A stretch of 64,000 nucleotides of DNA from Candidatus Latescibacterota bacterium (GTDB lineage: Bacteria; Latescibacterota; UBA2968; UBA8231): contig CBDETK010000013.1 in assembly GCA_965242865.1 (NCBI GenBank), forward strand, positions 4,928,001-4,992,000, given 5' to 3'. Position numbers and translations under genes: made by a program. Position 1 is the stretch's first letter. Every line of letters begins with the position of its first letter. Below are positions 11,063 through 53,655 of this stretch, one piece after another. The notes under the pieces were generated by a model. That model was not told the DNA's origin. It did not search any database and worked only from the letters and a program-made list of their open reading frames with translations.

Positions 11063-11225
11063 TCCACACCTCTGGATCCATGAATGGCGAGAATATATGT
11101 TTCTTTAGCAAAAAAGCCGCAAAACCACCGCCCGCGTCCTATGATCTCCGTCCTTGCCGCAGCAAAGGGTAATTTCTATAATTGCGACCATTATCTGCTT
11201 AATTCACCTCTACAGCGATGAGTGT

Positions 11226-12917
11226 ATGGACTTTTTTTATCAGCGTCGGCCCCTTGCCTCTGCCTTAGTGCTGGCCGTGCTGCTGCCGAAATCGGTCCTA
11301 CCCCAATTCACCGACCAGACGGAGGAGGCGCACATCGCCTTCCAATACGTGGCTGGCGGACCTGAGAAAAAGCACATTGTCGAAACCTCCGGCGGCGGAG
11401 CTGCTTTTTTTGATTACGATAACGATGGCGATCTCGACCTATACACGGTCAATGGTGCTACGGTCAATACCTACCGGCAAAAAACCGGACCGGGCAATGT
11501 CCTCTACCGCAATCGAGGCAACGGAACCTTTGCCGATGTGGCTGTACCAGCCGGTGTCGGGGACCGCAGTTGGGGCATGGGCTGTACCGTGGGCGACATC
11601 GACGGCGACGGGCACCGCGATCTTTACGTGACTAATTATGGTCCCAATGTTCTCTACCGCAACCGAGGCAACGGAACCTTCGCGGACATTTCCACTGGGG
11701 TAGCAGGGAACGATTATAGCTCCAGCGCCGCTTTTTTTGATTACGATGGCGACGGCGATCTCGACCTATACGTCGCCAATTATCTCGTTTACGATTTTGA
11801 CTCTCCTCCAGATAAGGTCTGCACCTACGAGGGCATCGAGATCTTCTGCGGTCCTCAGGGCTTACCTGGAGCTGCCGACCTGTTCTATCGCAACAACGGA
11901 GACAATACCTTCACCGACGTCACTCGGCCCTCGGGTATCTCCTGGGCCAACCGCTATTATGGGTTGGGTGTACTGCCCGAAGACTTCGACAACGACGGCG
12001 ACATCGATCTCTTCGTGGCCAATGACGCAACTCCCAATGTGCTCTTCGACAACAACCGCGATGGCACCTTTAGCGAAATTGGCCTAAAAGCAGGCATTGC
12101 GTATAACGAATACGGCGAAGAAGAGGCCGGGATGGGGGTCAGCGGCGGAGACTATGACGCCGACGGTGACCTCGACCTCTATATAACCCATTTTTTTCGC
12201 GAGAGTAATACCTTCTACCGCAACGACGGACCAAGCCATTTCAAAGATATAACGGCCCAGACTGGTCTAGAGGAACCCACGCTTGGAATGCTGGGGTGGG
12301 GCACCCAATTTTTCGACTACGACAGAGATGGCGACTTGGATCTATTCGTCGCTAATGGCCATGTCTATCCGCAGGTGGCGAGCACTATTGCGAGCACTTT
12401 CTATCCCCAGCGCAATCAGTTAATCCGCAACGAAGGCAGCGATCGTCTAACCGATATAGGGGCTGCGGCTGGCCCGGGAATGGACCTTAAAAGAGTCAGC
12501 CGTGGTGCCAGTTTTGGCGACTACGACAACGACGGCGATATGGACATTTTCGTCGTCAATTTGGATGAGGTGGCCACCCTGTTGCGCAACGATTTTGCCC
12601 CCGCCAACAACTATCTCGTAGTACAACTGCTGGGTCGTGGCCCCAATCGCGATGCCGTCGGCGCCAAGATCCGCTTGCTGGTCGACGGCCGACCCCAGTG
12701 GCGCACGGCTAACGGTGCTTCTAGCTATCTCTCCTATAACGATATGCGTATTTTCTTTGGCCTAGGTGGGGCGGAAGGGGCAGATGAAGTGGAGATCACT
12801 TGGCCCGACGGAACTCGTCAGACAGTGCCATCGGCACCGGCCAATAAGCTGCTGGTAGTTCGCCAGAACGGCTCCTACGCCTTCTTGGAGATGGGAGCCA
12901 ACCTCTACGCAGAGTAG
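11226..12917 (+). CDS. CRTAC1-family protein (FG-GAP repeats + ASPIC/UnbV)
   Basis: Repeated DYDNDGDLDLY..N motifs, RGASFGDYDNDG, C-terminal NRDAVGA...SYLS...FGLG...WPDG. Confidence 0.9.
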   Translation: MDFFYQRRPLASALVLAVLLPKSVLPQFTDQTEEAHIAFQYVAGGPEKKHIVETSGGGAAFFDYDNDGDLDLYTVNGATVNTYRQKTGPGNVLYRNRGNGTFADVAVPAGVGDRSWGMGCTVGDIDGDGHRDLYVTNYGPNVLYRNRGNGTFADISTGVAGNDYSSSAAFFDYDGDGDLDLYVANYLVYDFDSPPDKVCTYEGIEIFCGPQGLPGAADLFYRNNGDNTFTDVTRPSGISWANRYYGLGVLPEDFDNDGDIDLFVANDATPNVLFDNNRDGTFSEIGLKAGIAYNEYGEEEAGMGVSGGDYDADGDLDLYITHFFRESNTFYRNDGPSHFKDITAQTGLEEPTLGMLGWGTQFFDYDRDGDLDLFVANGHVYPQVASTIASTFYPQRNQLIRNEGSDRLTDIGAAAGPGMDLKRVSRGASFGDYDNDGDMDIFVVNLDEVATLLRNDFAPANNYLVVQLLGRGPNRDAVGAKIRLLVDGRPQWRTANGASSYLSYNDMRIFFGLGGAEGADEVEITWPDGTRQTVPSAPANKLLVVRQNGSYAFLEMGANLYAE

Positions 12918-12920: not shown

Positions 12921-14594
12921 CTATGGGTGCCTATTCTCCCCGAAAGCGGCGTTGAGGTTATCCTCCCGAATAACCACTTTCGCTGCGTATTTATTCCGCA
13001 CTTCTTCGGTAAACTGATTGAAGGCCCTTCTGTTTTTTTCTCTTTTAAGTTGGGACCGGACTCTCCACTCGGCCTCCGCAAAAGTCTCCCGCTTGCGTTC
13101 TCTAGAAAGCACCTTAAATATAGAATACCCTTCATTGACCTTGGCCGGACCAGTGAGCACTCCTATCTCGGCTTTTTCGGCGAGTTCTACAAAACCGCCG
13201 AAAAAGTTCTTTTCAAAAAGGTGGAAGTGGAATCGGCCTTCTTCATCCCGATCCTCTAGCGACCGGATAGAATACTTCTTGGCCAAGTCGCCTAATGGGG
13301 CTCCCTTTTGGAGCTGCTCCATCAACCTCAGGGCCTCGGCCTCCGTCTCCACCAGAATCTCCTGTACTTCGATCTGCTCGGGTTGCAGATACCTTGCCGC
13401 ATGGGCCTCGTAAAACTGGCGCAACTCGTTTTCAGCGATGGTCACTTTAGCTCTTAGGACTCGCGCCCTGAGGGCTCGTAACAAAAATTGCTTTGCCTGA
13501 TCTTCCAACCACTCGATCGTCTCTGCTTCCTCGTCTATGCCAGCACGCAGGGCCGCTTCCACGAGCATCGCATTGGGCACGACATGGCGCTCGGCAAAAG
13601 CGATCACTTGGCTGGAGTCGCTGAGTTGGGCTAGGGCATTGCCTTTCAGGGCGTGGCCAGCTTCTGCCAAGTCTTGAGCGGTTATTTCTCCGCCGTCGTA
13701 CCGATAGAGAACTATATTGCGTTCAGTCTCCAGGGCAAAAGATGTACCGCCACGCACTTTTTCGACAATGAGCGCGAGACCTTCCCGGTCCAATTCGAGG
13801 TGGTACTTTTCCTTGAGTTCAGCGACTAAGATCGATTGAGCCCGCTGCTTTTTCTCCTTTTTCAGTCCCATTTCGAGCGCCAGTTTCCTCTGGGGACTGA
13901 GTTCGATGGTAGAATCGGCGATGACCGTGAAAATCGAATAGCGCCCACCGATTTTTATGGGTTCGGAGATTTCGCCTACGGCGAGAGAAAACAGTTTGTC
14001 CTGAAGGGGGGTGATCATGTTTTCTCGGGTGGTATAACGGCCCAAGTCCCCACCTTGGGCCGAGGTTTCTTTGTTTATGGACCATTTCTTGGCGACTTGC
14101 CCAAAAGGCACCCCATTTTTGAGTTCTCGGAGGACGGCCAAGGCGTCTTCTCGGCTGGGGACCATTATATCGGCCAATCTGATCACTCTAGTAAGCCCCA
14201 TGTGTTCAGCGTATTCCCGCACTGTGCTCTCCTCTACTTCCTCTTCTACCTCCAGCGCTCTATCTTGGAAAATGCGGACCAACTTTTCCCGCCGGACCTC
14301 TTCCCGCCGGGCGCGAAATTCAAGGCTTTCGTCGAGATCGGCTGCCTTCGCCTCCATGATCAGCAGTTCGATATTGATCATGGTGTTCAAATGATTCTTC
14401 GCTTCTTCTACCCTAGTGGACTCCGCCTTGGCATATTCGGGGAGGTCATCTATAAATTTCCGCAACTGGTCAACCGTTATCTCCTCATCACCTATCTGAG
14501 CAACCACTCGTTCTCCTATTTCCACTGTGCAACCCATGAACACGGCAAAGAGCACGAGTGGTAAAAGACAAAATACAGTCATTTCTCTTGACAT
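12921..14594 (-). CDS. SurA/PrsA-like lipoprotein with two parvulin (PpiC) domains
   Basis: Lipobox FMGC; VAQIGDEEIT; FGQVAKKWS...GGDLG...GEISEPI and LAKKYS...GPAK rotamase-like domains. Confidence 0.8.
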   Translation of the reverse strand: MSREMTVFCLLPLVLFAVFMGCTVEIGERVVAQIGDEEITVDQLRKFIDDLPEYAKAESTRVEEAKNHLNTMINIELLIMEAKAADLDESLEFRARREEVRREKLVRIFQDRALEVEEEVEESTVREYAEHMGLTRVIRLADIMVPSREDALAVLRELKNGVPFGQVAKKWSINKETSAQGGDLGRYTTRENMITPLQDKLFSLAVGEISEPIKIGGRYSIFTVIADSTIELSPQRKLALEMGLKKEKKQRAQSILVAELKEKYHLELDREGLALIVEKVRGGTSFALETERNIVLYRYDGGEITAQDLAEAGHALKGNALAQLSDSSQVIAFAERHVVPNAMLVEAALRAGIDEEAETIEWLEDQAKQFLLRALRARVLRAKVTIAENELRQFYEAHAARYLQPEQIEVQEILVETEAEALRLMEQLQKGAPLGDLAKKYSIRSLEDRDEEGRFHFHLFEKNFFGGFVELAEKAEIGVLTGPAKVNEGYSIFKVLSRERKRETFAEAEWRVRSQLKREKNRRAFNQFTEEVRNKYAAKVVIREDNLNAAFGENRHP

Positions 14595-14633
14595 TTAGCT
14601 CAGGTCTCCTCTGCATTCCTGCACACGGGTAGA

Positions 14634-17345
14634 TTAGTCCAAACCGGCAAATACCGTGGCAAAAGCCATTCTGCCTGTTTCGGTTTCGTTGTCGATGGCT
14701 CTTCGGGTCAACCTGAGTCCCATCAGGGTCGTCAGACTGTAGCCCAAGTAATTTGAATTATTGGAGAACTGGGCCGCGCCGACAATTTCACTGAAGTCGT
14801 CCAGCAGTCCTTCCTTGACCGCTGTATCCGAATCCCTGAGTTGCTGGAAAACGGTATATTCCACACCTGCCTGCATAGTGGAGTTATTAAACAATGGCCA
14901 CCGGGCCAGTAAAGAAAATATCAGGGTGTCCTCCCTGCGTTTGGGATTTGATTTAAGTGCTGGAGACTCTATCCTCAGTTCGTTTTTAATTTTGGGCTGG
15001 ATGTCGAGATTAACGAATTTGAAAATATAGTCCACCTTATTGATCAGGCCGACAAAAACGAAGTCCCGTTGCAAATCGGGCTGTCTTTCCCTTTGATGCC
15101 AGTGGTCGTATTTCAGCTTGTTGATGAGATTTAGATTCTTCAGCTTGGTATAGCTGAAGCTTATATAGGACGAATTTATCCACGTATTCCGGGCCGCCAG
15201 AGGATCAATGGTAGGGACGTTGCGCCTCTCGAATTCGTCCCACTGGCGAAGGTCATTTTCTATATTGTCCTTAGCCAGCCTGAAATTCTCAAAAATCCTC
15301 ACCCTTCCTAGGCCGGGATAGTCCTTTTCTAAGGTGAAAAGTAAATAATGGGTGGTATTTTCTCCATCACCGGCAATGAGCCTCTCGTCGGTGCGGCCGA
15401 TAGTCAACCTCATCTCTGGAGTAATGTTGACGCCCGCATAAAAATTGTACCCGCTTAAATCCCGACCATAAGGAAAGTCTGCTTCATCATCGTTTTCAAA
15501 CCGGTCTATCCATATATTGTTGTTCATATCTATGCCGAACAGATACTCGGGGCGGTCCGTAGAATAGCGCAGAAAGGGCTCGTCGTAGTCAGGCACTAAG
15601 TTGGGCAGATCTTCACTGTCGTTTTGGTTGAAATCGGAGATAAAATCGACGTTTTCATCCAAGCCGGGAAATACATTCAAGTCGATGTTTTCGTTTATCC
15701 TCTGCCAATCGGGATACCGGTCCTGATCATCGTTGTCGTCGACGAGTTCGTAGTAGAATCTCGTCCGGTCCTCGTAATCTATGTTGATCTCGCCTCGGGC
15801 CAAGATAGCACTTGTATTGTAATTGTGGTCCATACTGTAAGCCTCGCCGAAAAAGAACCACGGCTGCACGGTTCTCGACAGATTCAACATCCAGCCATCG
15901 CCTTGGTCAAAAGCCGACAGGTGTTTTGTATGCTGCCTGTTGGGGTATTTTCGATAACTCCTACTGCGGTCAAATTCGCCGTAGAAATCAAGGCCCCCAA
16001 TGTTGTTCGCCTCCAGAGTGAAACCGAAAATTTCGGTGGCGGTCGGCAAACCGTACGGGATTTTGAGGACTCTGAGATTAGAGCCGTCTTTGACGTTTTC
16101 TTGGGCTCTGGCCGCCAGCAGAAACACGTTGCTGTTTTGACGGTTAGTCTGGCTGTTCGAAGATACCTCGATTCTGTAGTCGTTGGCAACCACCAGTTCA
16201 AAAGTCACTCTTCTTATCTCCGAAGGGTCTGGGCCGGTGTACGTTCCCTCGGAAAAGTCGTATACTAGTTCGATCTGCTCAGAGCCGCTGGCTTCCCAGA
16301 AACCCAAGCGCTGAAAGCCGCCCTGAGGCGAGGGCTTGAGACCCGCCTCGCTAGCCCGGACAACCTCTCGCCTAAACGCCCGTTCCCCCTCTTCATCAAT
16401 GCTTTCGACTTCGGCTTCTATGATCATATCCCAAGCGAAGAGGGTAGCACCGCCTTCGTTGTCTTCGGGCGAATCGTCGGTCAGACGGACGAAAAGCTGG
16501 GTGATATTTTCAGCGTTTTGACTAGAAGTGATCGAACCACTCCTAGGGGTTCCTTCAAAAGCGTCCAAGAGTTGGAAGGAATTGTGGGCACTTACGTAGT
16601 TGGCCCCGATGCTGATGAAATCACCCACTTGGGCAACGGCCCGCCCGCCCATCAGCGTTGTCAAGCTGGTCGTTTGGTTGACTGCAGGATTGCGAGAACC
16701 GGCTCCGCCGGGAGAAGAGATCCGCGAGAGGATCGTAGTGATCTGGTATTTGTCGGCTTGGTAGTCCACTTGGATCCCGTCCAAGGCCGGCTTTGAGAAG
16801 GTCATTGGAGTAAGGGTCGAGCGGATCTCGTTACCTATGGTGATGGCTAAGTTATGCTGCCCCTTCTGATCAGAGGCAATGACCAAATTGCTGAAAAAGT
16901 TTTGGAATCTCTCGGTCTTAAATAAGTTACTGCCCCCTTGCTGGGGCTGCGTTTGGGACCAGTCGTAGACCAACCATCCCCTAGTGATATAGGAACCGTA
17001 AATATCGTAAAAATAATCCCCGGCTAAATTGATATCCACATAGCGATTGTAGTGGTCCCTGGCGTAGTTGGTGTATTCCCACTGTTTCCAGCGGTATTCT
17101 AGGAAAAGTTCTTGCGGTACGTACCACTTTTTGACCGCCGGATCCAAGGCACCGAACAGCACACCGGACCCGGTTGGCTCAAAGGTGAGTTCGGCCCCTC
17201 GGCGCATGCCTTTTATACGCATCGGATCGACGTCTTGGGCTTGTGCGTCGGTGTCGAAAGCTAACATGGAAGAGAGAAGGGAACAAACTATGGTCGCTAG
17301 ACTAATACCGCGCATTAAAGTGCTGTAAGTATGGTAGGTCAGCAT
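14634..17345 (-). CDS. Large secreted protein, probable outer-membrane beta-barrel with Asp-rich insert
   Basis: Signal peptide (AQA-Q); alternating aromatic/hydrophobic strands in the C-terminal third ending ATVFAGLD; DDNDDQD/DENVD/DMNNN Ca-binding-like motifs; fold is inference. Confidence 0.6.
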   Translation of the reverse strand: MLTYHTYSTLMRGISLATIVCSLLSSMLAFDTDAQAQDVDPMRIKGMRRGAELTFEPTGSGVLFGALDPAVKKWYVPQELFLEYRWKQWEYTNYARDHYNRYVDINLAGDYFYDIYGSYITRGWLVYDWSQTQPQQGGSNLFKTERFQNFFSNLVIASDQKGQHNLAITIGNEIRSTLTPMTFSKPALDGIQVDYQADKYQITTILSRISSPGGAGSRNPAVNQTTSLTTLMGGRAVAQVGDFISIGANYVSAHNSFQLLDAFEGTPRSGSITSSQNAENITQLFVRLTDDSPEDNEGGATLFAWDMIIEAEVESIDEEGERAFRREVVRASEAGLKPSPQGGFQRLGFWEASGSEQIELVYDFSEGTYTGPDPSEIRRVTFELVVANDYRIEVSSNSQTNRQNSNVFLLAARAQENVKDGSNLRVLKIPYGLPTATEIFGFTLEANNIGGLDFYGEFDRSRSYRKYPNRQHTKHLSAFDQGDGWMLNLSRTVQPWFFFGEAYSMDHNYNTSAILARGEINIDYEDRTRFYYELVDDNDDQDRYPDWQRINENIDLNVFPGLDENVDFISDFNQNDSEDLPNLVPDYDEPFLRYSTDRPEYLFGIDMNNNIWIDRFENDDEADFPYGRDLSGYNFYAGVNITPEMRLTIGRTDERLIAGDGENTTHYLLFTLEKDYPGLGRVRIFENFRLAKDNIENDLRQWDEFERRNVPTIDPLAARNTWINSSYISFSYTKLKNLNLINKLKYDHWHQRERQPDLQRDFVFVGLINKVDYIFKFVNLDIQPKIKNELRIESPALKSNPKRREDTLIFSLLARWPLFNNSTMQAGVEYTVFQQLRDSDTAVKEGLLDDFSEIVGAAQFSNNSNYLGYSLTTLMGLRLTRRAIDNETETGRMAFATVFAGLD

Positions 17346-17383
17346 GAGAGTTCCACCCTAGCTTTCAGGTAAAATGGGAATAA

Positions 17384-19147
17384 TCAATAGACTATTGGGA
17401 CAAGTCTCGTCTTGCTCTCAGATCCTGAGTCTGCATCAATTTCCACTCGCACCAAATAGATTCCGGGCAGCACTTTGGCACCGCTCCCGTCCGTTCCATC
17501 CCAAGCCCTTTGGTATCTCTTACTGGAACCCAACCCTGAATAGATCGCCTTTACACGCCTTCCAGAAAGATCGTATATATCCACCGAAACGAAGGCACCA
17601 CCTGTCAGGTTGACGATGTCGTAGGTCACCAAAACTTCATCATTTAGGCCATCGCCGTTGGGAGTAAAAGGGACGGGAGTCACTTTCATGGAATGAATGA
17701 GGTCTTTGCCCACCGAGATCTCGACCGAAAGGTCATCCCCCTGCGCCTCAAAATCAGAGGCTGCATCTCCCTCGGTGACTACTTGGGGCAGGTTGTCCGG
17801 TTTTTGGCTATCGGAGACTCTACCGGCAAAAAAAGTGTTGTACTGCAAAGCCACGTTCTCAAAGACCACTCGCAAGGTGCGGTTCCCCACAATCCGGGGG
17901 AAGCTAATTTGGCCCCCGTCTTCTGTATCCACCTTTTCCCATCCGACATCGAGCCCGTCTATTTGCACAGATCGCACTATGTCTACCGGTGCCATAGTCT
18001 TTATTTCGAGACGGTTAAATCCTCGGCTGTTGACGGTTCTCACGGCATAGGTAAAGGGGGTATTCTGCCCAATCAGAGCACGTTGGGGCCATATCTCGCC
18101 CACCAGCGAGTCGGCTAGGGAAGGAGATACCTCAAAGGCGAGGGAATCAACGGTCGCCGCTGCTAGGATATCGCTGGTCTTGAGGAGTAAACGGAACTGA
18201 AAAAAACGACGCGGGGCTGGTGATTCAATAGCCGTATGCACTCCGGCAGGATAGGGAGAGGACCAAGTGCTCCAAGACAGCGAATCGCTGGGATCCGGTG
18301 TGTTGCCGCTCCGAGTCGATAGGATAGCATCTGTTTTCGTGGGTTCGCCGATGCTACTCCTAGCCCATGTTATGTCGCCAAAGATAGCGGGCTGTTCTCG
18401 ATCAAATACTTTTGAGATATACGATGCAGAAGAGGCAAAACCTGCACCAAAGACTTGAAATTCGTCGATCTCCCATTCCCCGCGTACCAGTTGTTTCACC
18501 TCTATGAAACGAACAAACTGTAAGGGGATGTCTAGGTCAATGGTCGGCTTGAGGTTGCGTTCCTCGGTCTTAAAAACCTTGAAATCCGGCGTCCCGGCTA
18601 GGGTTTTCTGCTCCTCGCTGCCGTCGTTCAGCAGCAATTCATAGCCTTTTAGGAAAAACTCTTCAAATCCCTTGCGCGGGAAAAACTTGATCCGATTGAC
18701 CCCGAAGCGCTCACCCAAATCTATCCTGAATATAACGCCTGTAGGAGAACCGCCCTTTACTTCAAAGGCCTTGGTTGTATCGCCGCTGACCATATGCGCC
18801 AATTGTTTATTCAAAAGACTCTGAGATGTTTCAAGCACTATTCTCGCGTTGGGCGATGTTACGGCCCCTCCTCTTTCAAATATTTTTAGGACGATATTGT
18901 CTTCGGGGCCTGTCTGAGCCGGCTGAATTTGGCCGGGATTGGCGTCAAAATCGATAACCGATATCTCGGAATAATGGCCATCCCACGCTAGGGTCCCTGG
19001 ACCGCCGCCAATGACGATCTTCGCCCCATAGCCTTGGGTCGGTACAAGTCCCTGCAATAGACAAGAGAACGCTAATAGCACTGTCTTGACTAACGGTGGC
19101 TTGTTAAACCTGTTCCTCTCGGCTCGTAGAAGATCAATAGGAGACAT
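17384..19147 (-). CDS. Secreted discoidin-like protein with C-terminal FlgD-Ig / sorting-like domain (paralog C)
   Basis: IDLGERFGVNRIKFFP; TRSG...WSTWSSPY...SPAPRRFFQ; PFTPNGDGLND, YDLSGRRV, WDGTD, PGIY; ends VPIVY; start uncertain. Confidence 0.75.
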   Translation of the reverse strand: MSPIDLLRAERNRFNKPPLVKTVLLAFSCLLQGLVPTQGYGAKIVIGGGPGTLAWDGHYSEISVIDFDANPGQIQPAQTGPEDNIVLKIFERGGAVTSPNARIVLETSQSLLNKQLAHMVSGDTTKAFEVKGGSPTGVIFRIDLGERFGVNRIKFFPRKGFEEFFLKGYELLLNDGSEEQKTLAGTPDFKVFKTEERNLKPTIDLDIPLQFVRFIEVKQLVRGEWEIDEFQVFGAGFASSASYISKVFDREQPAIFGDITWARSSIGEPTKTDAILSTRSGNTPDPSDSLSWSTWSSPYPAGVHTAIESPAPRRFFQFRLLLKTSDILAAATVDSLAFEVSPSLADSLVGEIWPQRALIGQNTPFTYAVRTVNSRGFNRLEIKTMAPVDIVRSVQIDGLDVGWEKVDTEDGGQISFPRIVGNRTLRVVFENVALQYNTFFAGRVSDSQKPDNLPQVVTEGDAASDFEAQGDDLSVEISVGKDLIHSMKVTPVPFTPNGDGLNDEVLVTYDIVNLTGGAFVSVDIYDLSGRRVKAIYSGLGSSKRYQRAWDGTDGSGAKVLPGIYLVRVEIDADSGSESKTRLVPIVY

Positions 19148-21806
19148 GTACTAAGCGATAGTCCGAGGTATTTCTACTCGATTTTGAATCGACCTTAATG
19201 TCGATCCTCAGCACATATATGCCAGGGGCCACCAAAGCCCCGGATCTATCGACTCCGGTCCAGACCACGGAATGCCGTCCCGTGGTTATGTACTCGTCGC
19301 GCAGTTGGTGAACAAGACGCCCACCTAGATCGTATATTTTTACCTGTAACGGCGTTGATGCCTTCACCCGCATGAGTGAAAAACTCACAGTCATATCATC
19401 GTTGATGCCATCGCCGTTGGGGGTGAAGATCTCATTTTGGACTTCGATATCTCCCAGTACCACTCCTCTTTCAAGGGCTAAGATCACGGTTTTTTCGCTG
19501 TCCGTGGTCTCGTTCGCATCGCCTGGGTCCACTCTTTGCCACGAATTGGGTATGGAAGAATGGCCGATAGACCCATTGAAGAACGTGGTAAAATCGAATG
19601 TGGTCGCCTCAAACTGAATTTCGATCAACGCGGCCCCGCCGGTCGTCTTTATGGGAGTGGGCAGGCGCACCCAAAGCGAATCGGAACCACCGGCTACGAC
19701 CTCAAAGCCCTCGCTCTGGGCGGTATAGGTTTGAGGCGGCTGCCCTGTGAGGTCCACGTGGGCTTGCTTGAATTTCATTTTGACGCCGGAGGGAGCTTCA
19801 ATGAGAATTTCGTCAAATCCTTCGTTGGCCGCCTCAAAGGTCGTGCGGATGAAATAGGAAAACGATTGCTCAGTGCCAATCACCTCGAGTTGAGCGGGCA
19901 GCACCTCGCCAATAACTGTTTTGGCGATGGGCGTTACAAAATTGAGTTTCACCCAACGCAGTGTAGCCGCTACGAGAGGATTTTCCGTGATAAAGGTCGC
20001 TTGGATGGCGACGAACTTCCGCGGACTAGGCGAGGTGATTTTGTCTCCCGAATTGAAATAGCGTTGACTCCAACTGCTCCAATCGCTGCCCGGGTTGGTC
20101 TGGGTAACGACGGGTCCAACAGAGGCATCCCCAAAGAATTTTTTGTCCGTAGCGTACGCTTCCGCTGCTTCTTCTTCGGAGCCCGGAAACAACTCACCGT
20201 TCTTTTTATAGTAGAGCGTAGTGGTTTTGACCGTATTGCCGGTGCGGGTCTGGAGAATAATATCCGTACCCGGTGGTATATCCGCATCCCACTCAATAGA
20301 CGCCAAATTTTGGGGAGTGGCCCCCAATTCTATGAACGCCGAAGGCCCGTCAAAGACCGATTCGATCCGGGCCTCGGGCATGTACCCCTCACCGAAAAAC
20401 TGAATCTCTGACAAGCCGTGGCGTCCGGCCCTTACATGGAGCTTATAGGTAAAAGAAAAATGCTTGACCTTGGTGAGTGGGAACTTAAAATCGTGGTACG
20501 ATTCACCAGAGTTGATCTGGTCGAGCGACCCTACTGTTTTCCAAGCCAGACTCCCGCCGGCATTGGTGGAGCCATCTGAGACTTCAATGCGGTAGGCGCG
20601 GAAAGGCCCAGGGGGGTTACTACTGGCTTGGAGCACGCGGATATTGTCCAAGAAGAAGGCCCCTCCCAGATCCGCCACTAACGCACGCTCGACATCGGGC
20701 GGCTGCGAAGGCAGCAGCCTATCGGGATTGTACCCCCCTTGAGCGGGCCAGTACAATGCCTTCTCTACACTATATATTACTCCGTCTACCACCACCCCCT
20801 CAGCCCCGTTGTTTTCCCAACTCGTCACTTTGCCACCCCGCTCCAGTACGCCAATGCCGATATTGTCGCCGATCGACCAGACTTCCACTTCCGCCAATCG
20901 AGGCAACTCGCGGCGGTAGTAGACGACAGGACCTTGACTGTCCGTGCTAGCCAAGGTCTCCCAATCTTCGCGTCCTTCCAACAATCGCGTCCTTCCCGAG
21001 GCTTCCCGACGGAAGTATTCTATGTCGCCCTGTTGCTCGGGGTCAAGGGCCTCGTAATCGGACTGGGAAACTTGTCTTGCCTTGCCAAAATCGCTGTCTG
21101 TGACGCCGACAGAGACGAATCTGATTACATCGCCGGTAAAATCGCCGCGCACCTGTGTCCATTTGGTGGGCAACTGGTTGGTCAAATCGACTTCAAAGAC
21201 CCGTTCATTCTTGATGGGCTTGTTCGTTGAGAAGCGTTTCCTGTACACCAGCGGTCCGATGATCGTCTCTCCTTGAGAGGTGAGGACCTTGAATTGGAGA
21301 AAGGGGTCTCCCAAATCCTCCCCGACAAACTTGAGAACGATCTTATGGGCCGATACGGCTCGCCCTAAATCGATTTGTACCCACCAATCCCTAAGAGGGG
21401 TGGAAGTGTCCGGCTCCCAGTAGGTGTCCATCCTGTTGTCCATGAGGTTTTCTGCGCTCAAGCGGTTGGAGCCGGCATCCCATATCCCACCGCCGAACTC
21501 CGAGGCATTCAAAACCGCGTTAATGCCGGGGACTATCTTTTCGACACCATCTATTTCGAGCCTCGTGTTCTTGCGTATAAAGGCCGGTTTCACACCATCC
21601 TCGGTGATCTGGATGGTCCTTGCCACCGACTGCCAACGAGCCCAGTGATCCTCGGACTCGATGATAGCTACGCCATCTTGGATAGAAAAACCCTCTTGCC
21701 CCCAAGCGACTTCACCTAAGATCATCCTACCCAAAATACAGGCCAAGCTAGTGCTCACCAGCTTGAATGTTCTCTGCCAGGCCATGGCATTGGGGCTCCC
21801 ACGCAT
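19134..21806 (-). CDS. Secreted discoidin-like protein with C-terminal FlgD-Ig / sorting-like domain (paralog B)
   Basis: WVQIDLGR; TRTG...WSSWS...SPSPRKF; FTPNGDGIND, YDLGGRLV, WTGVD, PGIY; ends VHVSY. Confidence 0.75.
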   Translation of the reverse strand: MRGSPNAMAWQRTFKLVSTSLACILGRMILGEVAWGQEGFSIQDGVAIIESEDHWARWQSVARTIQITEDGVKPAFIRKNTRLEIDGVEKIVPGINAVLNASEFGGGIWDAGSNRLSAENLMDNRMDTYWEPDTSTPLRDWWVQIDLGRAVSAHKIVLKFVGEDLGDPFLQFKVLTSQGETIIGPLVYRKRFSTNKPIKNERVFEVDLTNQLPTKWTQVRGDFTGDVIRFVSVGVTDSDFGKARQVSQSDYEALDPEQQGDIEYFRREASGRTRLLEGREDWETLASTDSQGPVVYYRRELPRLAEVEVWSIGDNIGIGVLERGGKVTSWENNGAEGVVVDGVIYSVEKALYWPAQGGYNPDRLLPSQPPDVERALVADLGGAFFLDNIRVLQASSNPPGPFRAYRIEVSDGSTNAGGSLAWKTVGSLDQINSGESYHDFKFPLTKVKHFSFTYKLHVRAGRHGLSEIQFFGEGYMPEARIESVFDGPSAFIELGATPQNLASIEWDADIPPGTDIILQTRTGNTVKTTTLYYKKNGELFPGSEEEAAEAYATDKKFFGDASVGPVVTQTNPGSDWSSWSQRYFNSGDKITSPSPRKFVAIQATFITENPLVAATLRWVKLNFVTPIAKTVIGEVLPAQLEVIGTEQSFSYFIRTTFEAANEGFDEILIEAPSGVKMKFKQAHVDLTGQPPQTYTAQSEGFEVVAGGSDSLWVRLPTPIKTTGGAALIEIQFEATTFDFTTFFNGSIGHSSIPNSWQRVDPGDANETTDSEKTVILALERGVVLGDIEVQNEIFTPNGDGINDDMTVSFSLMRVKASTPLQVKIYDLGGRLVHQLRDEYITTGRHSVVWTGVDRSGALVAPGIYVLRIDIKVDSKSSRNTSDYRLVHVSY

Positions 21807-21831
21807 TTACTCATCTGGGGGCGATTAAAAA

Positions 21832-23802
21832 TCAATAGACCACGGCGATAACGCCGCTCTTGATGCCCTCTTCCGCTTGGATGTCTACCGCTATTCGATA
21901 TAAATAGAGTCCTGGGGGGACCAGCCGGTTGGAGCGGTCTGTTCCATCCCAAGGGTGGGAATACTCTCCGATGGAGATGCCCCCGGCGTATATTTGCTTG
22001 ACTAGCCGGCCGGACAAGTCGAAGATTTCCACGGAGACGGGAACCTGAGATGTCACCCGCAAGAGCTTGTAGGAGATATGCACCACGTCATTGGTGGCAT
22101 CGCCGTTGGGCGTAAAGGGATTGGGCTCAATTTGCGGTGTAGATACCAGTGAACTAATCAGCGCTGTTTTCACCGAAATTCCGTCGCTCTCAATCTCGTC
22201 GTCGGCGTTGCCCGGGTTGATGCGTTGGCGCACCTCGTTTGGCTCGGCTCTGTTGAACACCTTACCAGTAAACAGCGTACCCACTTCCCGCAGTACCGGA
22301 GCATTGAACACCACCTCGATCAGGGCCCCGCTGTCGGTTGGTTCTAGTTTGCGCGGAAAGTCGATCTCAAAGCCCAAGCCATCCGCCGTTTTCGCCCAGA
22401 AAAAATTGTCGTAATTGATCCCGTCTATGCGCAGCGAATCGACCGAAACCACCCCCGAGGGCGTGGAGATTTCTACGCCGTCAAAACCCCTGTCGCTAGC
22501 CCGGATGGTCGGGCGAATAAAATAGGTGAATTGCGTCACCTGCCCCACTTGGGTGTCCACCGGGAAAATTTCCCCCACCAAGCTATGTACGGCCGGTGGC
22601 ACGGAGGCCTTGAACTCGACATAATCAATTTTGCCTCCATCCTCGACAGTAGAAAAAAAGTCCACTTTGAGCTGGAAGAATTGGCGAGGACTAGGGGAGA
22701 CGATGCTGGTCCCCGAGTTTTTGAACAGATAGGGACTGGACCAGAAACTCCAGTTTTCTGTATCGGGGCTCACTCTATCTCGGGGTTCTACCGGTTTGAG
22801 AACGTCGAGCAGCTTGCGGTATCGGCTCTTGTATTCGCTCAGGGTCAAGTCGCCCCCGCCATCGAGGAATTGAACGCTGTCTTGCTGCTCGGGCCGCAAC
22901 TGCCAGAAAATATCGGGATGTGGGTCTGCGCCCGTCCGGGTGCGGATATTGATCTGGGCGTCCATATCCTGTCGGCCCGACCAGCGGATCTCGCCCCAAC
23001 TGGCCAGATCGCCCAATTCGATTATTTCGGATTCATACGAGGCTCGCCCCAAGAAACCACCTCCGTAGAGTTCAAAATCGGCAAGCCCTATCTCCTTGGG
23101 GGTTTCGCGAAAAATCAGCAATTGGATCGTTTGGGTTGATATGGGAGGATCTAAAATCACGCTAACTTCGGGTTCGGTGTTTTCCTTTACTTCTGCTATG
23201 GTGGGGAAATTGGGAATGTTTTGAGCGATGTTGACTAGTCTATCATCGAAGGCACCAATGGATATCCGCTCCAGAAAGTGTTCTGGCTTTTCCACCAGAG
23301 GGCGAAATCTCACCTCTCGGATGAGAAATCGACCGCCTAAATCAAAAGTCACTTGTTCATTGATCAGCCGCCGGCCCTGCGGGCCAGCAGTGCCCACGTG
23401 GAAGCTCTCTGGAGCTATAGCTGGCCACGTAAGGGCCGTAGTCGGATCTGCATCGATCATCGCCTGTCCGATCAGCTTATTTTGATTGGCAAAAAGCTTT
23501 ACCCGCACCCAGCCGTCTCGGCTCAAGAGGGTTGCGGCGATGTCCTCGTCCTCAGTAAAAAAATTGGGTTGTAGTGAACCCGCCTGCAAAGAGTCCAACT
23601 CGAGGGCATCCTGCAGTTGAGAGGCTGTCCAGTCAATTTCCCTGAAATCGATGCCGAGGCTTTCAAGGCTGTCCTTTTCCGCTGTTGAAAAGGGTGCGCC
23701 AATCCTATAGATGATCACGCTAGAGGCATTTGGGGGCCAGAGGGCGACGCCGAGCAAAGCGAGTAGGAGCAAGCCTGTGGACTTCGATGGGAGCATGCTC
23801 AT
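21832..23802 (-). CDS. Secreted discoidin-like protein with C-terminal FlgD-Ig / sorting-like domain (paralog A)
   Basis: Signal peptide from MSMLPSK; FDLGGRFLIREVRFRP; TRTG...WSFWSSPY...SPSPRQFFQ; PNPFTPNGDATND, FDLSGRLV, WDGTD, PGLY; ends IAVVY. Confidence 0.75.
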   Translation of the reverse strand: MSMLPSKSTGLLLLALLGVALWPPNASSVIIYRIGAPFSTAEKDSLESLGIDFREIDWTASQLQDALELDSLQAGSLQPNFFTEDEDIAATLLSRDGWVRVKLFANQNKLIGQAMIDADPTTALTWPAIAPESFHVGTAGPQGRRLINEQVTFDLGGRFLIREVRFRPLVEKPEHFLERISIGAFDDRLVNIAQNIPNFPTIAEVKENTEPEVSVILDPPISTQTIQLLIFRETPKEIGLADFELYGGGFLGRASYESEIIELGDLASWGEIRWSGRQDMDAQINIRTRTGADPHPDIFWQLRPEQQDSVQFLDGGGDLTLSEYKSRYRKLLDVLKPVEPRDRVSPDTENWSFWSSPYLFKNSGTSIVSPSPRQFFQLKVDFFSTVEDGGKIDYVEFKASVPPAVHSLVGEIFPVDTQVGQVTQFTYFIRPTIRASDRGFDGVEISTPSGVVSVDSLRIDGINYDNFFWAKTADGLGFEIDFPRKLEPTDSGALIEVVFNAPVLREVGTLFTGKVFNRAEPNEVRQRINPGNADDEIESDGISVKTALISSLVSTPQIEPNPFTPNGDATNDVVHISYKLLRVTSQVPVSVEIFDLSGRLVKQIYAGGISIGEYSHPWDGTDRSNRLVPPGLYLYRIAVDIQAEEGIKSGVIAVVY

Positions 23803-23816
23803 CCTTTGGCGAAAGT

Positions 23817-23851
23817 AAAAATAAAAAGGGGGGCGATAACCTTGCCCCCCC
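23817..23851 (-). terminator. Intrinsic terminator inside the operon
   Basis: Minus strand GGGGGGC-aaggttatc-GCCCCCC followed by TTTTTATTTTT, about 30 bp after the stop of the 309-aa gene. Confidence 0.75.
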
Positions 23852-23880
23852 AATTACCAATCTTGCCCTAATTGTTCTAC

Positions 23881-24810
23881 TTAGCGGGAGAAACTCGCCT
23901 TGATATTTCCCCAGCTATCCGCCTCGACGGAAGTGCCCGTGTCCTCGCCCGGTACCCAGATGCTCTCATCATAGGGGAGCAGGACATAGTCGACCATAGC
24001 GGTAGCTTTGAAGTAGAGTTCTGTATCGCCGCTGTTGGTCCAGTAGCCGTTGTAGTTGCCTTCCGCACCGTCGTCGTCGTCCTGAACGGCAAAGCCAATA
24101 CCCATGATTTCTCCGGCCGCCATAGTATGGACGATCACCTCTTCGTCTTCTATGCCCGTAGAGCTCGTAGGCAAATCGTCGAAGGGAGTAAACCACATTT
24201 CCATGAACAGAGTTCCGGCCCCGCCGTTGATATCCCCCTCAAAACTCCATTTGGCACCAGAATAAGGCTCGACTCCGGCCCACGGAGCTCCGCCCCAGAG
24301 CCACATGTGGTTTTCTTGGTGCAGCGTGTAGCGGTAATTCTGGGACAAAGCCCCTTCCCATCTCTCCGGGTCCAAATCCGCCGATTGTACATTCTGGAAA
24401 ATAGCGTCGCCGCTATGGTCGAAGTCTAGGGTTACCTCGACCGTATCGAAATTATTTTCGATAGTCCCATAAAAGAGGTCGTCGAACCGTTCCTCCATGA
24501 AATACAAGAGGTTGGTCACTGGACTCCAGCCGAAAATGATGCGCTCAGCTAGATTGGAGGGGTCGGGGTCCCCTTGGGTGCCGGTGACAGTCTCGATTAG
24601 ATCTTCATGGGTCACCCAGAAAACCGAGGGTACGTTGTCCCATTCGCTTATGTCTCCGTCCATCTGGACATCTCTTACGCCATCGACTCCAATAGGCACC
24701 TGAACGGCGGCCCAGTTTCTGTCTGACCGCAGGTGAGCCGAACTGGACGCGACCGTGAAGAGGACAAGACCCAATGCCAAGAAGTTATAACTCATTGCTT
24801 TGTTCATCAC
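23881..24810 (-). CDS. Secreted acidic CBM9/DOMON-like protein with C-terminal 'SVExxSWGxIK' tail
   Basis: Signal peptide; MDGDISEW, LYF...DD, DTVEVTLDFDHSG, GIGFAVQDDD resemble CBM9-like sugar-binding folds; ends TSVEADSWGNIKASFSR. Confidence 0.6.
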   Translation of the reverse strand: MMNKAMSYNFLALGLVLFTVASSSAHLRSDRNWAAVQVPIGVDGVRDVQMDGDISEWDNVPSVFWVTHEDLIETVTGTQGDPDPSNLAERIIFGWSPVTNLLYFMEERFDDLFYGTIENNFDTVEVTLDFDHSGDAIFQNVQSADLDPERWEGALSQNYRYTLHQENHMWLWGGAPWAGVEPYSGAKWSFEGDINGGAGTLFMEMWFTPFDDLPTSSTGIEDEEVIVHTMAAGEIMGIGFAVQDDDDGAEGNYNGYWTNSGDTELYFKATAMVDYVLLPYDESIWVPGEDTGTSVEADSWGNIKASFSR

Positions 24811-24972: not shown

Positions 24973-26679
24973 TCATTTGGACATGGCGCGTCCCGAGTTG
25001 CTCTTTCCATCTATGTGGACAATGCCCTCGCCCTCTTGAAGCACCACGAGCCTATTGGCAGAGAGATTTTCAAATCGTTCCTCTAGGCCACTTGGCCAGC
25101 GCACTACCAACAAGTCGATGGCCTCTCTCTGCCCCAAGCCGAAATGGGCCCTCAAGTCATTGTGCGAAAGATAGCTAGCACCACTCCGAATTTCGGCACT
25201 TTGCGTGAGTCCTCCACAGCGAACCTCGACCCAGGCCCCTATACCGTCTCTATTGCTTTCAGTCCCTATAGTCTTGACCATTAACCAGTTGTTCTTATTG
25301 CCGCCGTCGTTGTGCAACAAAGTGGGGCGATCGTTTAGGTTCAGGACAAATATGTCCAGATCCCCATCATCGTCGTAATCCCCAAAGGAAGCCCCTCTGC
25401 TCACTTTTTTAATCCCCAAGCCCTCCCCCGATAGCTGCGAGACCTCGACGAAGGTGCCGTCGCCCAAGTTTTCAAAGAGTTGATTGGTCTGGGCATAGCT
25501 AGTGCCTAGATTGGCCCTGTCCAATTGTGGAAAGAGGTGGCCATTGGCGACGAAGAGATCTTTATCGCCATCGTTGTCATAGTCGAAAAACTCGGTGCCC
25601 CAAGCCAAAAACTGGAAACTCTCCTTGCCCACGCCTGCGTCAAAGCTGAGGTCGGAAAAGAACGCGCCGCGGTCGTTGTGGTAAAGCGTATTGGTTTGCT
25701 CCCAGAAGTTGGTGACGAATATATCTTGGTATAGGTCATTGTCGTAATCCCCATAGGCAATGCCCATACAGCCTTGAGCCTCGCCGCTTTCGCCATAGGC
25801 AGCACCGATCATCCAGCCGATGTCGGCAAAAGTGCCATCGCCTTGGTTTTGATAAAGGAAATTGGGGCCCGTGTCGTTGGCCACATAGATGTCCACATCG
25901 CCATCCCGGTCGTAATCGCCGCCGATCACGCCCATACCGTAGAGCCTATCTTGGTCCACCACTCGCGTCTCCACGGTCACATCCGCAAAAGTTCCGTCGC
26001 CTTGATTGCGATACAGGATATCCCCACCCCCCTTCATGCCGCGGGGCCCAAAGTGAACCCTTAAGCCTTTCCACATATAGGACCTATTAGGAGTGGTCTG
26101 CAGAAAGTGCTTGAAATCGACGTAGTTGGCTACGTACAAATCTAGGTATCCGTCGCTGTCGTAATCGAGGAAGGCACATCCTGTGCTGAACCGCTCGTCT
26201 CCTACTTGGGCGTACTCGGTTACATCGACAAAAGTCCCGTCGCCTTGATTGTCGTACAGTGCGTTCCTGCCGTAGTTGGTTATATAAATGTCCAAGTCGC
26301 CATCGTTGTCGTAATCGCCGACAGCGCATCCCATCCCCCAGCCAGCGTCGCCCAAGTTCGCTTCGTCGGTAGCATCGACGAATTTACCGTGCTCGTTTCT
26401 ATAAAAGGTATTGCGTGGATGCTCTTGGCCTGAAAAGCCAACCACTTTTGACCCGTTCAAGATGTACAAGTCCAAATCACCGTCTTGGTCGTAGTCGAAA
26501 AAAGCCGATCCTCCCATCATGCTATCGACCAAGTACGTCTGCTCCCTATCCCCGGAGACGTTCTGCGCCACAACCCCTACTTCCTCCGCTACATCCACGA
26601 ACTGGACTCGCCCCTCTACTTCCCGTCCTTCGATGGCTAAAAGCCGCGAGGAAATAAGGATTAGAAAAAAGAAATGCAT
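24973..26679 (-). CDS. CRTAC1-family protein (FG-GAP + ASPIC/UnbV)
   Basis: Multiple DYDxDGDxD repeats; NRDGIGA, SYLSHND..AHFGLG, RWPSG. Confidence 0.9.
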   Translation of the reverse strand: MHFFFLILISSRLLAIEGREVEGRVQFVDVAEEVGVVAQNVSGDREQTYLVDSMMGGSAFFDYDQDGDLDLYILNGSKVVGFSGQEHPRNTFYRNEHGKFVDATDEANLGDAGWGMGCAVGDYDNDGDLDIYITNYGRNALYDNQGDGTFVDVTEYAQVGDERFSTGCAFLDYDSDGYLDLYVANYVDFKHFLQTTPNRSYMWKGLRVHFGPRGMKGGGDILYRNQGDGTFADVTVETRVVDQDRLYGMGVIGGDYDRDGDVDIYVANDTGPNFLYQNQGDGTFADIGWMIGAAYGESGEAQGCMGIAYGDYDNDLYQDIFVTNFWEQTNTLYHNDRGAFFSDLSFDAGVGKESFQFLAWGTEFFDYDNDGDKDLFVANGHLFPQLDRANLGTSYAQTNQLFENLGDGTFVEVSQLSGEGLGIKKVSRGASFGDYDDDGDLDIFVLNLNDRPTLLHNDGGNKNNWLMVKTIGTESNRDGIGAWVEVRCGGLTQSAEIRSGASYLSHNDLRAHFGLGQREAIDLLVVRWPSGLEERFENLSANRLVVLQEGEGIVHIDGKSNSGRAMSK

Positions 26680-26694: not shown

Positions 26695-28245
26695 CTATGG
26701 ATTGTGCGCCTGCTTTGGTTTGGCGTCCAAGCTCTGGATAATCTCCTGTTGATCTTCCGCTTCCCTATAGCGCCCTGCTTTGATATAGGCATCTTTGAGC
26801 AATTGGCGGTACTCGAGATTATGCGGGTCGAGACCGATGGCCAGCTTGTACTCGTTGATCGCCTTTATATATCTGCCCTGTTGGGTATAATGAGCGGCCA
26901 ATTCGCCGCGGTATTTTGGATTGTCAGGCACTAAGACGACCCGTTGTTCCATATCTGCTATATTGCCTTCGCGCAGTTTTTTGAAGATCTCCATTTCCTT
27001 GGCGCCCTCCGCGCCTCTTCCCTGTTTCAGATAGGCGTTGGCCAAGCCGAAATGTGCTTCGGCATTGTAGTAGTCGAGGTCGATGGCTTTTTTGAATTTG
27101 TCAGTCGCCTCTTCCCCTCTGCCGATCTTGGCGTACACAGCCCCCAAGGCGTAGTGGAAAATCGACCGGTCAGGCTCGAGCCGGATGGCCTGCTGGTATT
27201 CCTCAATAGCTTCTTGGTATTTTTTGTCTCTCGCGTAGATCATGCCGAGCCGGTAACGGGTGTAGGCCATATCGGGATTGACGGCGAGTGCCTTGACGAA
27301 CTGTTCCGCCGCTTGGTCGTACTGTCGTTGGCGTTCATAGGCCATACCCAGATTGTGCTGGAACCAACCGTTTTCAGGGGCCAACTCCACGGCCTTGCGA
27401 TGTTCCTCGACAGCGGCGGCTAGCTTGTCTTGGTCCGCCATGACAGCCCCCAGCAGGGCCAAGGACTGATCGGTGTAGACCAAGCCCAGTTTATCATGCA
27501 CATCGGCCCAGTTCGGCTCGAGTTGCAATGTTCTATGGAATGCTTCTGCGGCCTCTGAAAGCTTACCTATTGCCATGTAGGCGTTCCCCAAGACAAAGTG
27601 GATAGACGGTTCGTTGGCGACTGCCTTGGCCGCTTGCCGCAATTCCTCTATGGCTTGAGAATAGTCCCCTTCTTCTAGATATATCGTCCCGAGCCGGTAG
27701 CGAGAGGGGCCGTAGTCGGGGTTGATTTCGATAGCTGCGTTGAAATGCTCTGCTGCTTGAGTTAGCTCTTGGGTCTGCACGTAGATGACACCTAGGCCGT
27801 GGTGGGCGGGAAAGTACTTGGGGTCAGCCTCAATGGCCTTTTGGTAAGCAGCGAAAGCCTCGTCGTACTCTTGGCGAATAAAAAAAATTTTACCCAACTT
27901 GTAGTGTGCTGGTGCGTAGCCCGGATCAATCTGGAGTACCTTGGCAAATTCCTCTTCTGCCTCGCCCAATCGGCTTTGTAGGGCGTAAATGAAACCGAGA
28001 CCGTCGTGCGGATAGATATTATTGGCGTCTAGTTCTATCGCCTTCCGGTACTCTCTCTCCGCGCTTTCATAGTCGCCCTTTTGGGCATGGCTTATACCGA
28101 GTCTATAATGCTCTTGGCTCCTCGAGGAAGCTCCCACCTCCTGTCCATGCGCGGCTCCAAGGTGGTTCAGGGTACATATCAAGGAAATTACATGGCTGAT
28201 TCGACGAATGGTACTCGATACCTTGCGCGGACTTGGAAAATACAT
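26695..28245 (-). CDS. Tetratricopeptide repeat protein (many TPRs, probably exported)
   Basis: Repeated AHYxLG..Y...A...Y.KAI..DP units; start placed at MYFPSPR. Confidence 0.85.
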   Translation of the reverse strand: MYFPSPRKVSSTIRRISHVISLICTLNHLGAAHGQEVGASSRSQEHYRLGISHAQKGDYESAEREYRKAIELDANNIYPHDGLGFIYALQSRLGEAEEEFAKVLQIDPGYAPAHYKLGKIFFIRQEYDEAFAAYQKAIEADPKYFPAHHGLGVIYVQTQELTQAAEHFNAAIEINPDYGPSRYRLGTIYLEEGDYSQAIEELRQAAKAVANEPSIHFVLGNAYMAIGKLSEAAEAFHRTLQLEPNWADVHDKLGLVYTDQSLALLGAVMADQDKLAAAVEEHRKAVELAPENGWFQHNLGMAYERQRQYDQAAEQFVKALAVNPDMAYTRYRLGMIYARDKKYQEAIEEYQQAIRLEPDRSIFHYALGAVYAKIGRGEEATDKFKKAIDLDYYNAEAHFGLANAYLKQGRGAEGAKEMEIFKKLREGNIADMEQRVVLVPDNPKYRGELAAHYTQQGRYIKAINEYKLAIGLDPHNLEYRQLLKDAYIKAGRYREAEDQQEIIQSLDAKPKQAHNP

Positions 28246-28303
28246 AGAGCAATTGTCCTCTCTTAGAGAGCACCGTGAGTCTTGCCGAACGGGCCGGAGG
28301 AGA

Positions 28304-53653: not shown

Positions 53654-53655
53654 GC

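Follow-up and report, generated by a model that had tools for sequence, protein, structure and literature searches.

A recurrent, unnamed gene cassette in Latescibacterota encoding a predicted outer-membrane beta-barrel and lectin-like proteins with type IX-like tails

The closest described counterparts of the locus presented here are systems in which a type IX secretion system (T9SS) cargo protein of type B is paired with an outer-membrane barrel of the PorP/SprF kind, as in SprB-SprF of Flavobacterium johnsoniae and PG1035-PorP-PorE of Porphyromonas gingivalis. According to excerpts of one study, proteins whose C-terminal domain (CTD) is of type B bind PorP-like barrels for anchorage at the surface (PMC9143113), and according to excerpts of another, genes of type-B cargo frequently occur in linkage with those that encode PorP/SprF-like shuttles (PMC12618676). 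The locus is a six-gene cassette at positions 12921-24810 of a 64-kb stretch of DNA from Candidatus Latescibacterota bacterium (GCA_965242865.1, contig CBDETK010000013.1, 4,928,001-4,992,000 of the forward strand). This stretch of 64,000 nucleotides is referred to as the window, and coordinates are positions within it unless a contig or locus is named. In transcription order the genes are C, for a secreted protein with the fold of carbohydrate-binding module family 9 (CBM9), a, b and c, for three secreted paralogs with T9SS-like tails, O, for a predicted outer-membrane beta-barrel, and P, for a parvulin foldase. The cassette is a real, recurrent and unnamed module of Latescibacterota that is heavily amplified and probably lineage-specific.

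The recurrence of the cassette is evident both within the genome of origin (6.0 Mb, 93.6% complete) and beyond it. The genome encodes 37 open reading frames (ORFs) of the O family, 19 of the C family, 24-29 of the P family and more than 100 related to a, b or c, which fall into 66 clusters, about 27 of them with an O gene. Together, the ORFs of the six families total 479,001 bases, or 8.0% of the genome, when tail-only relatives are included. Of 67 related loci drawn from species-representative genomes, 66 have O, 66 have c and 62 have b; a, C and P are each present in 48. Because the gene set recurs in these 67 loci and about 27 times in its own genome, the six-gene arrangement is far beyond chance, and the recurrence that the initial annotation had named as support for its proposal is borne out. 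Gene order is flexible (C-a-b-c-O-P, c-O-C-a-P-b, P-C-c-O-a-b and c-b-O-c-O are all found), and what stays constant is that a tailed paralog lies directly upstream of O, with both genes on the same strand. A c- or b-type tailed paralog occupies this position for 74 of the 76 O genes in the related loci, one of the two exceptions lying at a contig end; in the genome of origin it does so for 23 of 37 O genes, with another O gene directly upstream of 6 more.

At E <= 1e-20, 92 of 151 genomes from the phylum yielded O, among them all 63 of the window's family; the 49 genomes from another two families of its class yielded none. A protein collection clustered at 90% contains more than 1,100 relatives of O, which lack Pfam domains and for which any name given is 'hypothetical'; clustering at 50% leaves 732 representatives, 192 of them at E <= 1e-30. 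The C family comprises 140 proteins at E <= 1e-5, likewise all unnamed and without a Pfam domain. No paper describing the cassette was found in the literature on Latescibacterota type IX secretion or polysaccharide utilization loci (PULs), and the excerpted text of one Latescibacteria study proposes only non-specific porins (PMC4454575). The earlier impression that no named system fits is therefore upheld, with neither a Pfam or NCBIfam family for O or C nor a matching paper.

The arrangement of the six genes, which lie close-packed on the minus strand, was reproduced from the ORF listing as first annotated, with intergenic gaps of 78, 25, -14, 38 and 39 bp in the order C-a-b-c-O-P; the 78-bp value requires the 656-residue start of a. 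The three paralogs are 29-34% identical in pairwise alignment, and every motif of the ordered series first reported for them is visible in that alignment: DLG, TR(T/S)G, WSxWS, SPxPRxF, GE(I/V)xP, F(T/S)Yx(I/V)R, GF(D/N) and QxxxxG(D/N)A, followed by FTPNGDxxND, (Y/F)DLxGRxV, WxGxD, PG(I/L)Y and a terminal (V/I)xY. The tails score above the Pfam cut-offs for both CHU_C (cut-off 27 bits) and FlgD_ig in all three proteins (36.6 and 31.3 bits for a, 32.5 and 33.3 bits for b, 29.6 and 34.1 bits for c, respectively), which agrees with their initial description as T9SS CTD-like. The head of b matches F5_F8_type_C (35 bits) and F5_F8_type_C_2 (33.7 bits). Among 40 members of the c family, matches at E <= 0.001 were obtained for CHU_C in 37, FlgD_ig in 35 and Por_Secre_tail in 2, and for the NCBIfam type-B and type-A models in 17 and 8, respectively; a few of these 40 carry unrelated N-terminal domains (LVIVD, NHL, Metallophos) and are probably tail-only relatives. 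From these counts, CHU_C and type B against Por_Secre_tail and type A, the tails appear closer to type B than to type A. Against solved structures, a profile of the c family retrieved the FlgD Ig domain 3osv (8.4e-10) and the F-type lectin 4gwi (2.1e-5), with a weak match to the CTD that PorU retains. On the basis of these matches, a, b and c are predicted to consist of discoidin/F-type-lectin-like heads and CHU_C/FlgD-Ig (T9SS type-B-like) tails. Long arrays of 700-780-residue proteins that match a, b or c by phmmer, probably through the shared tail, occur without O nearby at G000:C13:367162-410433 and 3158112-3203565.

Genes for several core components of type IX secretion were identified in the genome. 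PorU is full-length and scores 624 bits (cut-off 420), SprA spans 2,150 residues and scores 482+114 bits (cut-off 200), and a PorV-like barrel gene that adjoins porU scores 147 bits, below its cut-off of 250. The porU, porV-like and sprA genes are located at G000:C13:5149754-5154055 and 2954586-2959907. Since SprA, PorU and a PorV-like protein are encoded and the same kind of tail is present on more than 100 other proteins of the genome, many of them far from any O gene, the tails of a, b and c are most simply T9SS signals. PorP-family (TIGR03519) matches are limited to two weak ones (44.5 and 43.6 bits, cut-off 90.55), neither of them in the cassette, and this near absence of PorP-like genes makes a different barrel partner plausible. 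The type IX machinery of the lineage may be divergent.

The candidate for such a partner is O. No Pfam match was obtained for O at E <= 0.01, only two chance-level matches appeared at E <= 10, no NCBIfam model matched at E <= 1 (TIGR03519, PorP/SprF, is not among the NCBIfam results), and a profile search of PDB sequences returned nothing. The AlphaFold2 (AF2) model, built from a 58-sequence alignment, has a mean pLDDT of 77.6 and a pTM of 0.73 and consists of long antiparallel strands over residues 119-901, of which about 26-30 of membrane length were counted from the DSSP listing. The N-terminus is a hydrophobic stretch ending in AQA. Foldseek returned at least 500 matches with low TM-scores, the leading ones all outer-membrane barrels, and between Foldseek and VIA these included SlpA/SDBC (the best, with a Z-score of 14.3), MtrB, ushers such as FimD and PapC (Z about 13), LptD and porins. 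The VIA scores fall evenly from 14.3 to about 11, so that usher, LptD and SlpA are not set apart from porins. The 903-residue protein, first annotated as a probable barrel, is thus predicted to be a large outer-membrane beta-barrel outside any solved family.

Two segments of O stand out for their conservation. The most conserved part of the family is an insert at residues 506-629, modelled without strands, in which near-invariant Asp/Asn columns extend over 537-629 in the 58 sequences; its D/N-x-D/N repeats look like calcium-binding loops. The mature N-terminus (residues 43-118, about 75 residues) is highly conserved in close relatives, with many invariant aromatic residues and low AF2 confidence. 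This N-terminal segment may act as a plug or bind a partner. Pfam detected neither a Plug nor a TonB-dependent receptor domain in O up to E <= 10, and the 22 Plug-domain genes of the genome are located elsewhere. For an O homologue, none of the 30 nearest clusters of the ESM Atlas has a name; the closest cluster with one, DUF6029 (0.89), is no more than a lead, and no Pfam DUF6029 match was obtained for O. A complex prediction for O (37-903) with the tail of c (485-587) gave a score of 0.00 and no answer, which speaks neither for nor against binding.

The CBM9-like character first ascribed to the SWGxIK-tailed protein C holds at the level of fold. By sequence, no Pfam match was found even at E 10 (the CBM9 model included) and no NCBIfam match at E 1, and the C profile drew one chance match and nothing relevant from PDB sequences. 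The AF2 model (35 sequences, pLDDT 84.7) matched the CBM9 structures 7nwo (E 3.7e-9, TMt 0.70) and 1i82 (E 2.2e-8, TMt 0.69) in Foldseek, followed by heme-binding DOMON-type relatives, and C is accordingly modelled as a CBM9/DOMON beta-sandwich. The first predicted mature residue, after an AxA-type signal-peptidase site, is a histidine (H26; H1 in mature numbering) that is invariant in 35 of 35 aligned sequences, as is a second histidine (H132; H107 mature) in a D-x-D-H-S-G-G context. Histidine-brace copper proteins, such as those like the lytic polysaccharide monooxygenases (LPMOs), are characterised by a histidine at the mature N-terminus that forms a metal site with a second histidine; the CBM9 fold of C differs from the LPMO fold. 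In the genome of origin, 22 of 28 C-like paralogs have both histidines, and acidic residues are conserved in all 28. Because 4 of the 6 paralogs without the first histidine retain the second, a joint two-histidine site is only hypothetical.

The C-terminal tail of C follows the consensus T-[SA]-V-E-x-x-[ST]-W-G-x-[ILV]-K plus 3-6 residues and is conserved in the C family, in the genome of origin as in the related loci. Of the genome's 19,321 ORFs, only 80 contain its core motif at any position, and 65 have it within their last 20 residues. The carriers are mostly small (107-367 residues, mostly 180-370), have signal-peptide-like N-termini and belong to several unrelated families. Thirty-eight of the 65 are within 10 kb of tail-bearing relatives of a, b or c, against 17.1 expected, and a carrier is found within 12 kb of 29 of the 37 O genes; 27 carriers are elsewhere. 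No Pfam or NCBIfam model covers the tail, and the literature search for its motif strings found no paper. Taken as a sequence pattern, TSVExxSWGxIK resembles a C-terminal signal with a general role in sorting or docking. Some of the proteins that bear it form tandem arrays of 224-residue proteins, for example at G000:C13 725410-739668 and 2422010-2452113.

The initial annotation was right to end the cassette with a dedicated foldase, P, although the length of 309 residues given for it belongs to C, the first gene. Pfam matches to Rotamase_2 (72.5 bits), Rotamase (67.4 bits) and Rotamase_3 (50.7 bits) fall in two stretches of P. Its signal peptide ends in Cys22, which indicates a lipoprotein, and a cysteine follows the hydrophobic N-terminus in most of its 24 paralogs in the genome when inspected by eye. 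Scores against the equivalog models of SurA, PrsA and PpiD are all far below the cut-offs, so P is a parvulin foldase with no named orthologue. The promoter that had been suggested upstream of the cassette was not recovered, in that a scan for sites of the sigma-70 type, the only type covered, found none in the 162-bp AT-rich gap upstream of 24810.

Neighboring genes were scanned in the first 45 related loci, where 125 of 186 non-redundant candidate ORFs were assessed. These include TPR and FG-GAP/ASPIC proteins, at least 8 PhyH dioxygenases, sulfatases and FGE proteins, enolase-superfamily (MR_MLE) and UxuA proteins, one GH5, phosphoesterases and peptidases. In three related loci (L001:12633-14807, L006:6465-8663 and L016:9965-12199), O is directly followed by a gene for a PMT_2 (protein mannosyltransferase-like) and TPR protein of about 730 residues, a hint that cassette proteins may be glycosylated. 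In the genome of origin, 16 of the 45 FG-GAP/ASPIC family genes lie within 10 kb of an O gene, against 5.2 expected and with none of 5,000 permutations reaching 16, and these proteins may constitute a seventh, looser member of the module; TonB-dependent receptors are not enriched near O in the same genome (1 of 20 within 10 kb). Both sides of the cassette in the window carry such a gene (Table 1). Further away in the window, a DDE transposase (DDE_Tnp_1_3; 7998-8861, plus strand) has an operon for a sugar-type ABC transporter (4451-7892) on one side and an M19 dipeptidase gene on the other, and, about 25-30 kb from the cassette, an Omp85-family protein (49235-50659, plus strand) is followed by a cluster of TPR, ExbB/MotA and TonB_C genes (51841-55139, plus strand).

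Table 1. Features of the cassette and its immediate surroundings, with positions in the window.
Feature	Position	Strand	Description
C	23881..24810	-	309-aa secreted protein, modelled CBM9/DOMON fold
C tail TSVEADSWGNIKASFSR (TSVExxSWGxIK tag)	23884..23934	-	C-terminal end of C
a	21832..23853	-	673 aa from TTG, 656 aa from ATG at 23802; secreted; CHU_C/FlgD-Ig tail ~21835-22125
b	19134..21806	-	890-aa secreted paralog; F5/8-type-C (discoidin) domains; CHU_C/FlgD-Ig tail ~19137-19445
c	17384..19147	-	587-aa secreted paralog; predicted lectin-like head; CHU_C/FlgD-Ig tail ~17387-17668; directly upstream of O
O	14634..17345	-	903-aa predicted outer-membrane beta-barrel, uncharacterised family
O Asp/Asn-rich non-strand insert	15459..15830	-	residues 506-629
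P	12921..14594	-	557-aa lipoprotein, two parvulin peptidyl-prolyl isomerase domains (SurA/PrsA-like foldase)
FG-GAP/ASPIC-UnbV protein	24973..26679	-	directly upstream of cassette; Pfam FG-GAP_3 172.9, UnbV_ASPIC 73.6 bits; possible accessory gene
Second FG-GAP/ASPIC-UnbV protein	11154..12917	+	convergent with cassette 3' end; Pfam FG-GAP_3 171.1, UnbV_ASPIC 58.7 bits
TPR protein	26695..28470	-	upstream of ASPIC gene, same strand; Pfam TPR families; context only

The stretch is present in sponge and marine metagenome runs. Contigs from one metatranscriptome that are 90-95% identical to the cassette, and thus derive from a relative, cover 28 of 30 cassette bins and extend across two gene junctions, c/b and b/a. 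Expression is thereby hinted at only weakly, as contigs from an RNA library are no proof of transcription.

The preferred explanation, which is given about an even chance of being correct, is that the cassette captures ligands at the cell surface, with tailed lectins supplied by the T9SS and O as their cognate barrel. As read from their N-termini, a, b and c would be exported by Sec; the family matches, along with the genes for SprA, PorU and the PorV-like protein, suggest that they would then cross the outer membrane via a type IX-like translocon that recognises their CHU_C/FlgD-Ig CTDs, and sequence and profile matches suggest that they would present discoidin/F-type-lectin-like heads at the surface. 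O is proposed as the cognate partner because it holds the genomic position of PorP/SprF next to type-B cargo, and from this adjacency it would serve as the outer-membrane partner of the tailed paralogs, either anchoring the lectins or acting as a channel that they feed. Docking of the tails on O is plausible by the same adjacency and by analogy with type-B CTDs and PorP/SprF. P would be the periplasmic folding helper of the set, and C, a secreted protein with an N-terminal histidine and the WGxIK tail, an accessory subunit that binds a ligand or metal. About 30 diverged copies per genome could then cover a range of ligands, most likely glycans or glycoconjugates, to which the predicted lectin and CBM9 folds point and for which the genomic context is weak.

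Several observations weigh against this explanation. O is not related to PorP/SprF by sequence or specifically by fold and exceeds it in size about threefold, and 8 of the 37 O genes in the genome of origin have neither a tailed paralog nor another O gene directly upstream. The tails fall short of the NCBIfam type-B model TIGR04131 (29.6, 21.1 and 17.4 bits for a, b and c, cut-off 35) and of the type-A sorting-domain models as well. The T9SS core genes, for which the initial annotation had suggested a search, are represented by SprA, PorU and the PorV-like gene, while GldK is represented only by partial FGE-domain matches and GldM and GldL are unmatched by NCBIfam models in this 93.6% complete genome, a result for which the controls were silent, so that absence is not shown. 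With regard to glycans, sulfatase genes show no enrichment around O, as 1 of 25 lies within 10 kb against 2.9 expected, few glycoside hydrolases occur beside the cassettes (the one GH5 in 125 ORFs), and the only enriched neighbor, the FG-GAP/ASPIC family, is of unknown function. Contacts among the six cassette proteins, like the function of the module, are inferred.

A PUL-like import system is a fairly unlikely alternative, in which O would be a SusC-like channel lacking the TonB plug, with a, b, c and C as the surface binding proteins that supply it, comparable in function to SusD and surface glycan-binding proteins, and each copy would serve another polymer. The copy number and diversification of the cassette resemble SusC/D expansions, with 37 O genes against 22 TonB-dependent receptors, the pairing of a barrel with a binding protein is invariant, and lectin and CBM9 folds are among the parts. 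Sugar-acid and sulfatase genes are among the neighbors (MR_MLE, UxuA, GH5, sulfatase, FGE), and a sugar-type ABC transporter lies 5 kb from the cassette in the window. Yet the lack of a Plug/TonB-dependent receptor domain leaves O with no evident energy source, catabolic enzymes are inconsistent as neighbors, and a barrel of 26-30 strands whose acidic insert is conserved might just as well be closed. The narrower idea of a PUL for sulfated glycans was dropped, given that sulfatases are not enriched near O in the genome of origin. A bolder interpretation takes the plug-less 26-30-strand barrel and the T9SS-delivered lectins as a third kind of outer-membrane acquisition machine, a counterpart of SusC/D that would include C with a copper or heme site at its N-terminal histidine and TSVExxSWGxIK as a sorting signal on about 65 secreted proteins; this is unlikely.

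Two further alternatives assign O a role other than uptake. The adhesin or coat alternative, which is quite unlikely, holds that the tailed discoidin proteins bind host matrix or particles or form a coat, with O only an anchor, as SlpA is for the Deinococcus S-layer. Discoidin domains often mediate adhesion, the enriched FG-GAP/ASPIC neighbors are integrin-like propellers, the stretch occurs in sponge metagenome runs, and SlpA/SDBC is the best structural match of O. That match is not distinct from porins, however, about 30 diverged copies per genome would be unusual for a coat, and the cassette is also present in metagenome-assembled genomes whose record titles suggest no host. In a self-contained secretion or assembly device, a distinctly improbable alternative, O would translocate or assemble a, b and c via their tails independently of type IX, with P as a dedicated chaperone. 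Such a device would suit the co-inheritance of barrel, foldase and tailed paralogs, the near absence of PorP-like genes, the lack of NCBIfam matches to GldL and GldM, and the generic fold likeness of O to large translocating barrels (ushers, LptD). But ushers and LptD match O no more closely than porins do, P is a parvulin and not a donor-strand chaperone of the PapD kind, and the presence of SprA, PorU and PorV-like genes and of the same kind of tail on more than 100 other proteins, many far from O, indicates that a general pathway for the tails exists. The suggestion in the initial annotation that the tails pass through the barrel is, given these translocon genes, less economical than T9SS export, and its likeness to chaperone-usher loci fails on content, as neither a chaperone like PapD nor a match to the usher family is present and the resemblance of the barrel is generic.

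The commitment of about 8% of the bases of a genome to six cassette families represents a large and unexplained cell-surface investment in the widespread, uncultured Latescibacterota. Should O partner with the type-B-like tails, the rule of cargo plus cognate barrel in type IX secretion would extend outside the Bacteroidota and to a different barrel family; should O be a channel, it would represent a new route of nutrient capture. Two leads that could be tested at low cost come from the C family and its tail, namely a putative metal site and what may be a new sorting signal.

Comparison with known systems places the cassette nearest to the SprB-SprF-type systems, with which it shares a CHU_C-type C-terminal domain on a surface protein, an adjacent gene for an outer-membrane barrel, many cognate pairs per genome, and SprA and PorU in the genome. 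It differs in the barrel itself, as O has about 900 residues and about 26-30 strands and is unrelated by sequence to PorP, which has about 300 residues (TIGR03519, 292 positions). The cassette also has cargo in the form of three paralogs, along with a protein of CBM9 fold and a parvulin lipoprotein of its own, and it departs from these systems in its NCBIfam type-B scores, which are below cut-off, and in GldL and GldM, which were not found (with silent controls). Chaperone-usher pili have in common with the cassette a barrel, a periplasmic helper and paralogous subunits, and FimD and PapC are among the structural matches of O; however, no usher or PapD family match occurs in the six proteins, the helper is a parvulin, and the subunits are lectin-like proteins of 590-890 residues and not pilins. 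C shares its fold with CBM9 and DOMON proteins (TmCBM9-2, 1i82; 7nwo; the heme-binding 2ivf_C and the cellobiose dehydrogenase (CDH) cytochrome domain), from which it is distinguished as a stand-alone secreted protein and not a module of an enzyme, without a Pfam CBM9 match and with an invariant histidine at the predicted mature N-terminus, a second histidine and a WGxIK tail. The PULs of Bacteroidota (SusC/SusD) likewise combine a large barrel and an adjacent gene for a binding protein, dozens of diverged copies, and carbohydrate-binding-type folds at the surface; unlike them, O has no Plug/TonB-dependent receptor domain, the binding proteins bear T9SS-type tails and not lipoprotein signals, and catabolic enzymes are inconsistent neighbors. 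The cassette is best filed under the theme of type IX cargo with a cognate outer-membrane barrel, with a new barrel family and a PUL-like amplification.

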